This document shows positions 32,937-33,594 of a stretch of 64,000 nt of DNA, one piece after another (position 1 is the first letter of the stretch; each line of letters begins with the position of its first letter). The DNA is from Escherichia coli. GTDB taxonomy: Bacteria > Pseudomonadota > Gammaproteobacteria > Enterobacterales > Enterobacteriaceae. Location: assembly GCF_024502345.1 (NCBI RefSeq), contig NZ_JALDNN010000001.1; one strand, written 5' to 3'. The notes under the pieces were generated by a model. The model worked only from the letters and a program-made list of their open reading frames with translations, was not told the origin of the DNA and did no database searches. A program made the position numbers and the translations under genes.

Positions 32937-33116
32937 TTAAAAGGTAACATGACAATGCATGATGAATATAACAACATATGATGTTATGTAATGCGGAGGA
33001 AGATCACAAAATTTCGCACAGGATCGCGCTGTGGCTAATGAATGTAGTTATCCAATTGAAATTAAAGTAAAAATATTTTTACGGGTGGGGAGCAAGAAGG
33101 ATATAGAAACAAATAC

Positions 33117-33140
33117 GCCCTCGGAAAATCCAGAGGGCGT
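33117..33140 (-). terminator. Probable rho-independent terminator downstream of yhfL
   Basis: Reverse strand CGCCCTCTGG-attttc-CGAGGGCG followed by a T-rich tract. Confidence 0.5.
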
Positions 33141-33180
33141 CGGGCAATTAAACCGGTGTTAGCCGATTTCTGTCAGAGAC

Positions 33181-33348
33181 TTACTGTGCAGTAGGACCGC
33201 AACCGCCAATGATTTTAGAAATAGAAATTGCCGGGTGCAGCAGGTAGTCGTAAGAGCAGTTCTTATCACGGTTTTCAATATGACCAGTACATGCAGTTAA
33301 TGTAGCCAGTACTGCACCTACCAGTGCAACTTTAATAAATTTGTTCAT
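33181..33348 (-). CDS. yhfL: Small lipoprotein YhfL (55 aa); below the ORF-track cut-off
   Basis: Reverse-strand ATG at 33348 to TAA at 33181 translates MNKFIKVALVGAVLATLTACTGHIENRDKNCSYDYLLHPAISISKIIGGCGPTAQ; lipobox LTAC. Confidence 0.85.
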   Translation of the reverse strand: MNKFIKVALVGAVLATLTACTGHIENRDKNCSYDYLLHPAISISKIIGGCGPTAQ

Positions 33349-33594
33349 TTACATTCCCTATGTATTATATATTAATTAATATTCATTGATTATATGAATA
33401 TAAGCAGACTGCTCGTTAAGAACGATACAGGAATATTTAATTGGCGTCAGTGAGCGAATGACTTAATTTTGTAAGTCGCTGTAACGGTGAATATAACCCA
33501 TTAGCAGATAATATTTATTAAGGGGTTATGTTTTATTTGCTGAATATATAAAAAGAGTCATTAAGAAGGCCAGAATTCTCTGGCCCGGGTTAAA

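Follow-up and report, generated by a model that had tools for sequence, protein, structure and literature searches.

Two regulatory spacers around the small core lipoprotein gene yhfL at the AT-rich cysG-yhfL-frlA junction of Escherichia coli

The region where cysG of Escherichia coli meets the frl operon is familiar in its main components: yhfL, the promoters on its two sides and the neighboring frl operon have already been annotated or published. In strain K-12, yhfL is gene b3369, annotated as "DUF4223 domain-containing lipoprotein YhfL". Shimada 2014 assigned the hexamers TTAACG-19-TATAAT upstream of yhfL to a constitutive sigma-70 promoter (PMC3946193). The same genomic SELEX study found the cysG-yhfL spacer to be bound in vitro by sigma-70 RNA polymerase and reported an in vitro H-NS site in this spacer, whereas the yhfL-frlA spacer carried no H-NS mark (PMC3946193). 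A SELEX peak of the RpoS holoenzyme was also located in the cysG-yhfL spacer (PMC5493296). Upon induction of Nac, yhfL was the most strongly repressed gene, with a 128-fold drop in RNA-seq and a Nac ChIP peak nearby (PMC5217608); to be repressed to this extent, yhfL must be transcribed in LB. In a Salmonella CRISPRi screen, yhfL was represented by two enriched guides, but deletion of the gene produced no phenotype (PMC12070745). On the other side of yhfL, the start of frlABCD transcription is taken to lie 75 nt upstream of frlA, with a site for CRP at -41.5 and, ~70 nt farther upstream, a sigma-32 promoter (bioRxiv 10.1101/2020.01.13.904318). Two more kinds of described systems serve for comparison: the xenogeneic, H-NS-silenced AT-rich islands of the bgl, LEE and SPI-1 type, and very small outer-membrane lipoproteins such as LptM (YifL).

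We analyzed this junction in a 64,000-nt stretch of E. coli DNA, hereafter the window. According to the RefSeq annotation, the interval 32937-33594 is the junction cysG / yhfL / frlA read on the minus strand, in the orientation opposite to that of K-12. Outside the yhfL reading frame, all of its bases can be assigned to known elements, namely the terminator of cysG, the promoter and the terminator of yhfL, and the published frlABCD promoter with the FrlR operator. A preliminary description, made from the sequence alone, had taken the entire interval for an AT-rich island of the horizontally acquired, H-NS-silenced type. In our analysis, it is very probably a known junction in which two regulatory spacers surround a tiny core gene, and only the frl-side third came with an accessory cassette. 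Two parts of this arrangement are proposed: (i) the cysG-proximal 490 bp (33105-33594) would be ancestral core DNA, in which a monocistronic yhfL has its own promoter and terminator, and (ii) the frlA-proximal ~220 bp (32886-33104) would be the control region of the accessory frl cassette, comprising sigma-32 and sigma-70 promoters, a CRP site and a FrlR operator acting as a roadblock. The main features of the locus are as follows:

33595-34968, minus strand: cysG, siroheme synthase (457-aa ORF; annotated as cysG in RefSeq relatives)
33181-33348, minus strand: yhfL, 55-aa prolipoprotein (ATG-start ORF; Pfam PF13978; RefSeq annotation)
31548-32885, minus strand: frlA, fructoselysine/psicoselysine transporter (annotated 445-aa start)
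27854-33104, minus strand: frl cassette, comprising frlABCDR, their promoter region and REP-like repeats (comparison of loci with and without frl; left end read in the window)

The order of genes on the minus strand is nirB, nirD, nirC, cysG, yhfL, frlA, frlB, frlC, frlD, frlR, and the genes from yhfS to yhfZ together with trpS are located on the plus strand farther left in the window. The cysG gene is the final gene of nirBDC-cysG, and its stop codon forms the edge of the interval. At the opposite edge, the annotated frlA start at 32885 is preceded by an AAGG Shine-Dalgarno sequence, whereas the ATG at 32936 is only the start of the longest ORF, lacks a Shine-Dalgarno sequence and falls within the published frlA 5' leader. 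The start of frlA is therefore 32885 and not 32936, and the non-coding interval begins at 32886. A megablast search with 32700-33800 matched 5,425 of the 5,426 complete E. coli genomes, with cysG, yhfL and frlA annotated beneath the match.

The low G+C content noted in the preliminary description was borne out: it is 36.9% in 32937-33594 and 52.3% in the whole window, and no other 658-bp stretch in the 64 kb is lower (0.07% of sliding windows are equally low; the interval lies ~4.6 SD under the mean). The depth of this dip is largely explained by coding density. Non-coding DNA accounts for 541 of 709 bp (76%) of the interval, and local spacers have a pooled G+C content of 43.6% in a 41-kb neighborhood, for which the annotation was borrowed from a 99.5%-identical genome. 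Among the 23 spacers of this neighborhood, the yhfL-cysG spacer (31.3%) ranks second lowest and the frlA-yhfL spacer (40.7%) eighth lowest, and the yhfL coding sequence (42.3%) stands at the bottom of the 41 local coding sequences. The frl genes have 51-57.5% G+C. The low G+C of the interval has two causes: three quarters of it are promoter, leader or terminator DNA, and yhfL itself is poor in G+C throughout its hosts. The composition of the interval is not far from that of ordinary spacers in the neighborhood.

Low G+C characterizes yhfL and its upstream region throughout the family. The coding sequence of yhfL lies under the mean of its locus in 92 of the 94 loci with enough flanking sequence (median, -7 points), and the 150 nt upstream of it do so in all 94 (median, -17 points); the hosts in this survey span from 38% to 62% G+C, including Pseudomonas loci at 62%. 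The low G+C content of the interval is not a sign of recently imported DNA.

The extent of the accessory DNA was read from the comparison of genomes with and without frl. The frl-minus genomes match the megablast query only from its position 406, corresponding to window position 33105. In the alignment of a frl-plus with a frl-minus locus, the sequences are 100% identical as far as the first base after the yhfS stop codon and again from 33105 on; between these identical flanks, 5,243 bp of frl DNA stand in place of ~29 bp. The right end of the cassette, 33104|33105, is located just beyond the yhfL terminator and splits the proposed island in two. The frlA side is carried by 3,292 of the 5,426 complete E. 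coli genomes (61%), whereas the core segment 33105-33594 is found, with or without frl, in 5,383 of them (99.2%). This 490-bp segment contains the cysG terminator, the distal spacer, the promoter and leader of yhfL, yhfL itself and the yhfL terminator.

The short yhfL-yhfS spacer of the frl-minus genomes is homologous to the corresponding spacer in E. albertii and at one more Escherichia locus outside E. coli; the absence of frl is therefore ancestral, and frl was inserted, in agreement with the accessory status proposed earlier for this operon. A search for repeats at the ends of the cassette revealed neither direct repeats nor att-like sites, and no integrase marks the junctions. In one strain, an IS1 deletion ends at the yhfL flanks. 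As a whole, the comparison of strains speaks against the expectation that the island had come with its neighbor: the AT-rich yhfL part is not foreign DNA that arrived with frl.

The association of yhfL with cysG extends far beyond E. coli. We found 269 YhfL homologs at E<=1e-3 across Enterobacterales, and a DNA-pattern scan with one genome per species yielded at least 120 yhfL loci. In at least 36 species-level loci, cysG is located 130-510 bp upstream of yhfL, and trpS comes next in most of those with a readable downstream flank, Hafnia included, among the loci listed. The order cysG-yhfL-trpS was observed in Leclercia, Enterobacter, Lelliottia, Buttiauxella, Cedecea and Hafnia; in Leclercia, nirBDC-cysG is followed by yhfL and then by a convergent trpS. 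Other genera have additional genes at one side of yhfL or the other. In Salmonella and some Citrobacter, bigA is located between cysG and yhfL; in Cronobacter, frlABCDR occupies the same place, which is the opposite side from that in E. coli, and two other loci also have frl upstream of yhfL. In Citrobacter and Escherichia, the yhfS-Z cluster separates yhfL from trpS. The family is also present in the Pseudomonas putida group and, away from the syntenic position, in Pantoea, Proteus and Xenorhabdus; a horizontal transfer of yhfL must therefore have occurred in the past, albeit not a recent one in E. coli. The neighborhoods of the homologs in Pseudomonas, Proteus and Pantoea vary by locus and gave no functional clue.

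The open reading frame on which the preliminary description was centered is a real gene with the coordinates it had given, 55 codons at 33181-33348 on the minus strand. It had been called unlisted, which holds for a track of ORFs of at least 60 codons, but RefSeq annotates yhfL in every genome that we inspected. The 55-aa product, beginning MNKFIKVALVGAVLATLTAC, matches the Pfam family PF13978 (DUF4223) with E=5e-38 and 129.2 bits (cut-off, 27), residues 1-54 being aligned to profile positions 1-54 of 54. The protein accession WP_001031834.1 is identical in six of the seven E. coli strains with an inspected yhfL annotation, and the nucleotide differences of yhfL among those six strains are therefore synonymous; the K-12 protein is listed as NP_417828.1 and stands outside this comparison. 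Between the window and K-12, one nucleotide differs in the yhfL coding sequence and one in the 246-bp upstream spacer.

The N-terminus of YhfL has the composition of a lipoprotein signal peptide (residues 1-19), with a positive n-region M-N-K-F-I-K, an h-region VALVGAVLATL and a lipobox L-T-A-C, as described previously, that agrees with the pattern [LVI][ASTVI][GAS]C and places the cysteine at residue 20. The predicted mature protein comprises 36 aa from Cys20. In an alignment of 24 genera, the invariant columns are C20, C31, Y33, D34, Y35, H38, P39, S42, S44, K45, I47, G48, G49, C50 and G51, forming a core motif C-x-YDY-[LF][LF]-HP-x2-S-x-SK-x-IGGCG with two cysteines beyond that of the lipobox. 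The same motif was recovered in the at least 120 loci of the pattern scan, and the lipobox form L[TS][AG]C is kept in nearly all homologs.

The Lgt, LspA and Lnt steps and the Lol +2 rule are established lipoprotein biology. From the sequence, we infer that Cys20 of YhfL would be modified with diacylglycerol, that cleavage would follow Ala19 and that the new N-terminus would then be acylated by this standard pathway. Since the +2 residue is Thr and not Asp, the Lol system would be expected to deliver YhfL to the outer membrane. YhfL would end up in the outer membrane as a triacylated lipopeptide of 36 residues, in which a disulfide probably links Cys31 and Cys50; the disulfide is suggested because both cysteines are invariant. 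An AlphaFold2 model built on the 24-sequence alignment has low confidence (pLDDT 63.6, pTM 0.32), and the fold and the disulfide are conjectural. A profile search of PDB with YhfL found no relative at E<=10, and a literature search for "DUF4223" returned no papers. The candidate identity of YhfL with LptM was rejected, as the NCBIfam match covered the signal peptide only (residues 1-20; E=0.11; 12.6 bits against a cut-off of 27.7).

Within the core segment, the following elements were located around yhfL:

33567-33586, minus strand: terminator-like hairpin GGCCAGAGAAUUCUGGCC of the cysG/nir operon (-13.7 kcal/mol, z = -3.1), with a U-rich tail at 33545-33566
33498-33566, minus strand: hypervariable distal spacer (17-34% differing columns between E. 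coli allele classes, indels included)
33349-33497, minus strand: conserved proximal block with the promoter and 5' leader of yhfL (0-4% divergence among E. coli alleles)
33414-33419, minus strand: yhfL -35 element TTAACG (published assignment, located in the sequence)
33389-33394, minus strand: yhfL -10 element TATAAT (published assignment, located in the sequence)
33355-33359, minus strand: yhfL Shine-Dalgarno sequence AGGGA, 6 nt before the ATG
33104-33140, minus strand: intrinsic terminator of yhfL (hairpin 33115-33140, U-tract 33104-33114)

The segments that flank the distal spacer differ by 0-6% between allele classes. The AT run quoted in the preliminary description sits in the conserved proximal block, which also contains the promoter. 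The latter is a predicted one, a sequence assignment with a non-optimal 19-nt spacing of the hexamers and not a mapped start site. Upstream regions of yhfL aligned across five genera showed a column identity of only 44%, too divergent for covariation. An E. coli palindrome GACTTA-N6-TAAGTC at 33461-33478 is as far from the ATG as a palindrome conserved in other genera; homology between the two was rejected, the E. coli palindrome being missing from the closest non-coli Escherichia loci.

The terminator proposed earlier downstream of yhfL is well supported: the hairpin together with UAUUUGUUUCU has a folding energy of -18.1 kcal/mol (z = -4.2 against shuffled sequences), and a bulge kept it from being recognized in a simple consensus scan. 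Its alleles CUGG/CCGAG, CGGA/UCCGAG and CGGG/CCCGAG carry changes in the upper stem and loop, and all three pair. A hairpin and T-run on the 3' side of the yhfL stop codon were also found in Salmonella, Citrobacter, Leclercia, Cronobacter and Xenorhabdus. The stem of the cysG hairpin is conserved in six E. coli alleles, one of which has a change in the loop. A scan of 31000-36000 against Rfam at a permissive E-value gave no family inside the interval and three weak matches elsewhere, far under their gathering scores.

The remaining, frlA-proximal part of the interval belongs to the cassette and contains the following elements:

32886-33104, minus strand: promoter and leader of frlABCD, cassette-borne (promoter scan; operator match; published positions)
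32987-32992, minus strand: sigma-70 -35 element ATTACA of frl (promoter scan)
32965-32970, minus strand: sigma-70 -10 element TATATT of frl (promoter scan)
near 32993-33008, minus strand: putative CRP site of frl, placed, like the sigma-32 promoter, by the published distances only
32944-32953, minus strand: FrlR operator GTCATGTTAC (GT-N6-AC), the sole exact match in the window

The two hexamers form a sigma-70-like promoter ATTACA-16-TATATT with a TG extension. The published +1 maps near 32960, and the FrlR operator is just downstream of this position. Over 50 nt, the core of the promoter shares 82% identity with the spacer between cysG and frlA in Cronobacter, where frl has inserted on the other side of yhfL; the promoter therefore travels with the frl cassette.

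These data bear directly on the proposal that the whole AT-rich interval was horizontally acquired with frl and is silenced by H-NS, which we regard as highly improbable. As far as acquisition is concerned, the variable presence and insertion of frl agree with it, as do the extreme composition of the interval and the signs of older movement in the family, namely the Pseudomonas members and the non-syntenic sites; yet yhfL and the more AT-rich of the two spacers are outside the cassette, the yhfL part is nearly universal in E. coli and keeps an ancestral synteny across Enterobacteriaceae and Hafnia, and the genes that did arrive have an ordinary G+C content (51-57%). The cassette boundary, the 99.2% presence and the synteny largely refute the acquired origin, which stands for the frl cassette, accessory and inserted, and fails for 33105-33594. 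As for silencing, the genomic SELEX site in the cysG-yhfL spacer favors it, but RNA polymerase binds the same spacer, the yhfL mRNA is detectable and abundant enough to fall 128-fold on Nac induction, unlike that of a silenced locus, and the yhfL-frlA spacer is free of the H-NS mark in that study. The supplements of two H-NS papers mention yhfL, frlA and cysG nowhere (PMC11335895, PMC4288151). Some modulation by H-NS at the yhfL-cysG spacer, with its 31.3% G+C and its in vitro site, may still take place.

Another explanation of the low G+C content is that it was kept because the flanks of yhfL are a recombination or insertion hot spot, where AT-rich DNA that melts readily or is coated with H-NS captures cassettes, and not as a mere by-product of promoters. 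The cassettes on either side of yhfL do differ by genus (frl, bigA, yhfS-Z), the distal spacer is hypervariable, one strain has the endpoint of its IS1 deletion here, and H-NS-bound regions are called transposition hot spots in one study (PMC11335895). We nevertheless consider this explanation unlikely: variable genes between conserved neighbors are common in enterobacterial genomes, the seeming surplus of insertions is an anecdotal impression from the yhfL flanks alone, and repeats, att-like sites and integrases are lacking at the junctions. There is hardly any probability that the small ORF is not a gene and that the interval is a long non-coding regulatory region or a small RNA. The full-length match to a curated Pfam family, the homologs in more than 100 species with their invariant cysteines, shared motif and retained lipobox, and the Shine-Dalgarno sequence and terminator of its own all argue for a gene, despite the shortness (55 codons) and low G+C of the ORF and the lack of a protein-level report of YhfL in the literature that we searched. 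The high conservation within E. coli of the proximal 150 bp upstream favors the non-coding alternative, but Rfam recognizes no family within the interval, and the ORF alleles differ only synonymously next to a spacer that differs by up to 34%.

With the reading of two regulatory spacers around a core gene preferred, one may speculate on the role of the strongly conserved YhfL. It may be a disulfide-locked, deeply conserved lipopeptide of 36 residues in the outer membrane, common to Enterobacterales and the Pseudomonas putida group, which acts as an unrecognized accessory subunit or regulator of an envelope machine in the manner of LptM, and its AT-rich flanks may be a recurrent landing site of metabolic and adhesin cassettes. 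We hold this combined proposal to be quite unlikely as it stands.

Comparison of the junction with the described systems revealed different degrees of likeness. The locus is the same as that of K-12, with the same gene (b3369), neighbors and spacers and no substantive difference except orientation. Likewise, the frl side shows no difference from the P_frlABCD promoter described by Graf von Armansperg et al. (bioRxiv 10.1101/2020.01.13.904318), sharing the operator, the sigma-70 hexamers and a CRP-like half-site at the published distances, the sigma-32 and CRP elements being mapped by distance only. Like LptM/YifL, YhfL is a prolipoprotein of small size in which a canonical lipobox precedes a short mature peptide, whereas it has no sequence relationship to that protein and possesses a motif of its own, CSYDYLLHPAISISKIIGGCGP; by this analogy, it is plausible that the 36-residue lipopeptide could be an accessory subunit of an envelope machine. 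With the xenogeneic H-NS-silenced islands, the interval shares low G+C and one in vitro H-NS site in a spacer. Unlike them, it measures ~0.5 kb, consists of one tiny gene and its spacers, is core, syntenic and transcribed, and stands beside accessory genes of normal G+C; variability among strains and absence from relatives, which characterize such islands, were found for 27854-33104 only and not for 33105-33594. An AT-rich patch beside an accessory operon is by itself no evidence of foreign DNA: in the case of yhfL, the accessory cassette is normal in G+C, its end coincides exactly with the terminator of a core gene, and the AT-rich part is ancestral promoter DNA together with a low-G+C gene.

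The frlABCDR cassette (window 27854-33104) is an insertion/replacement polymorphism: it is carried by 3,292 of the 5,426 complete E. coli genomes, and the strains without it retain some 29 bp of ancestral spacer sequence, which E. albertii shares. The cassette showed no flanking repeats. At its left end, the spacer between yhfS and frlR has a G+C content of 59.6%, because it contains the following palindromic units:

Window ~27895-28010: REP/BIME-like palindromic units, e.g. GCCGGATGCGATGCTGGCGCATCTTATCCGGCCTAC, flanked by the stop codons of yhfS and frlR.

At the opposite end, frlA can be read from two in-frame starts. 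The longest ORF begins at an in-frame ATG at 32936 and encodes 462 aa, and the annotated start at 32885 gives 445 aa. The annotated start is preceded by an AAGG Shine-Dalgarno sequence, whereas the upstream ATG lacks one and is located inside the published 5' leader, directly downstream of the FrlR operator (32944-32953).

Between the E. coli allele classes, the 69 bp directly past the cysG terminator (33498-33566) are hypervariable, with 17-34% differences including indels, and the DNA flanking this spacer on either side shows 0-6% differences. Identity over 33106-33594 is bimodal in its distribution across genomes: 2,908 records reach at least 99%, and a second group of 2,214 falls at 90-95%. 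Apart from the yhfL interval (32937-33594), a G+C content under 42% over 658 bp occurs in the 64 kb only at 116-783 (minimum 41.5%) and 62617-63355 (minimum 40.7%). The AT-rich nirC-nirD spacer gave weak Rfam matches to sroE (35841-35920, minus strand; 22 bits, gathering score 51) and to IsrM (35730-35857, plus strand; 17 bits, gathering score 376); both are far under threshold and probably due to chance.

Comparison with yhfL loci of other genomes (numbered with the prefix L) revealed two palindromes at conserved positions upstream of the gene in Enterobacter, Leclercia, Lelliottia, Citrobacter and Salmonella:

Approximate positions relative to the yhfL ATG, -125 to -100 and -70 to -45: (G)AGTAGTCC-N6-GGACTACT(C) and AAATGGA-N3-7-TCCATTT.

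The loci concerned are L021, L024, L035, L041, L043, L053, L062 and L100, among others; the palindromes' arms are conserved and the loops variable, and we consider them candidate operators or RNA hairpins. E. coli lacks both.

About 40 of the 120 matches listed, with one genome per species, belong to a 63-aa form of the YhfL protein (LLSGCTGQVYNQPKNCSYDYLFHPSVSISKIIGGCGPIDKLPQQQ), found at differing genomic sites and mostly in records labelled as Pseudomonas putida-group species (L031-L033, L042, L044, L045, L047, L051, L052, L055, L056 and others). Pantoea, Mixta, Proteus and Erwinia carry a second enterobacterial subtype (GCTGSVYNKEKNCDYDY...). Directly upstream of yhfL, Pantoea sp. alder81 (L060) has ORFs that start, as judged by eye, with ParA-like (Walker-A) and DnaB-like N-termini, and from these sequences the locus may be part of a mobile element. 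Citrobacter youngae ATCC 29220 has two yhfL copies (L039, L040), one syntenic (cysG-yhfL-trpS) and one elsewhere.

Individual strains also differ around yhfL and the frl genes. In strain FCI56 (L003, locus 8006-9062), an IS1A element stands in place of yhfL, frlA and frlB together with part of frlC; it ends some 60 bp from the stop codon of cysG. In strain NCTC9112 (L015) yhfL is intact, whereas the annotation lists frlA as a pseudogene containing an internal stop. Beyond E. coli, the position of the operon relative to yhfL varies: in Cronobacter (L011) and two other loci (L130 and L131) it occupies the gap between cysG and yhfL, whereas in E. coli it lies downstream of yhfL. Thus, one cassette landed on opposite sides of yhfL.
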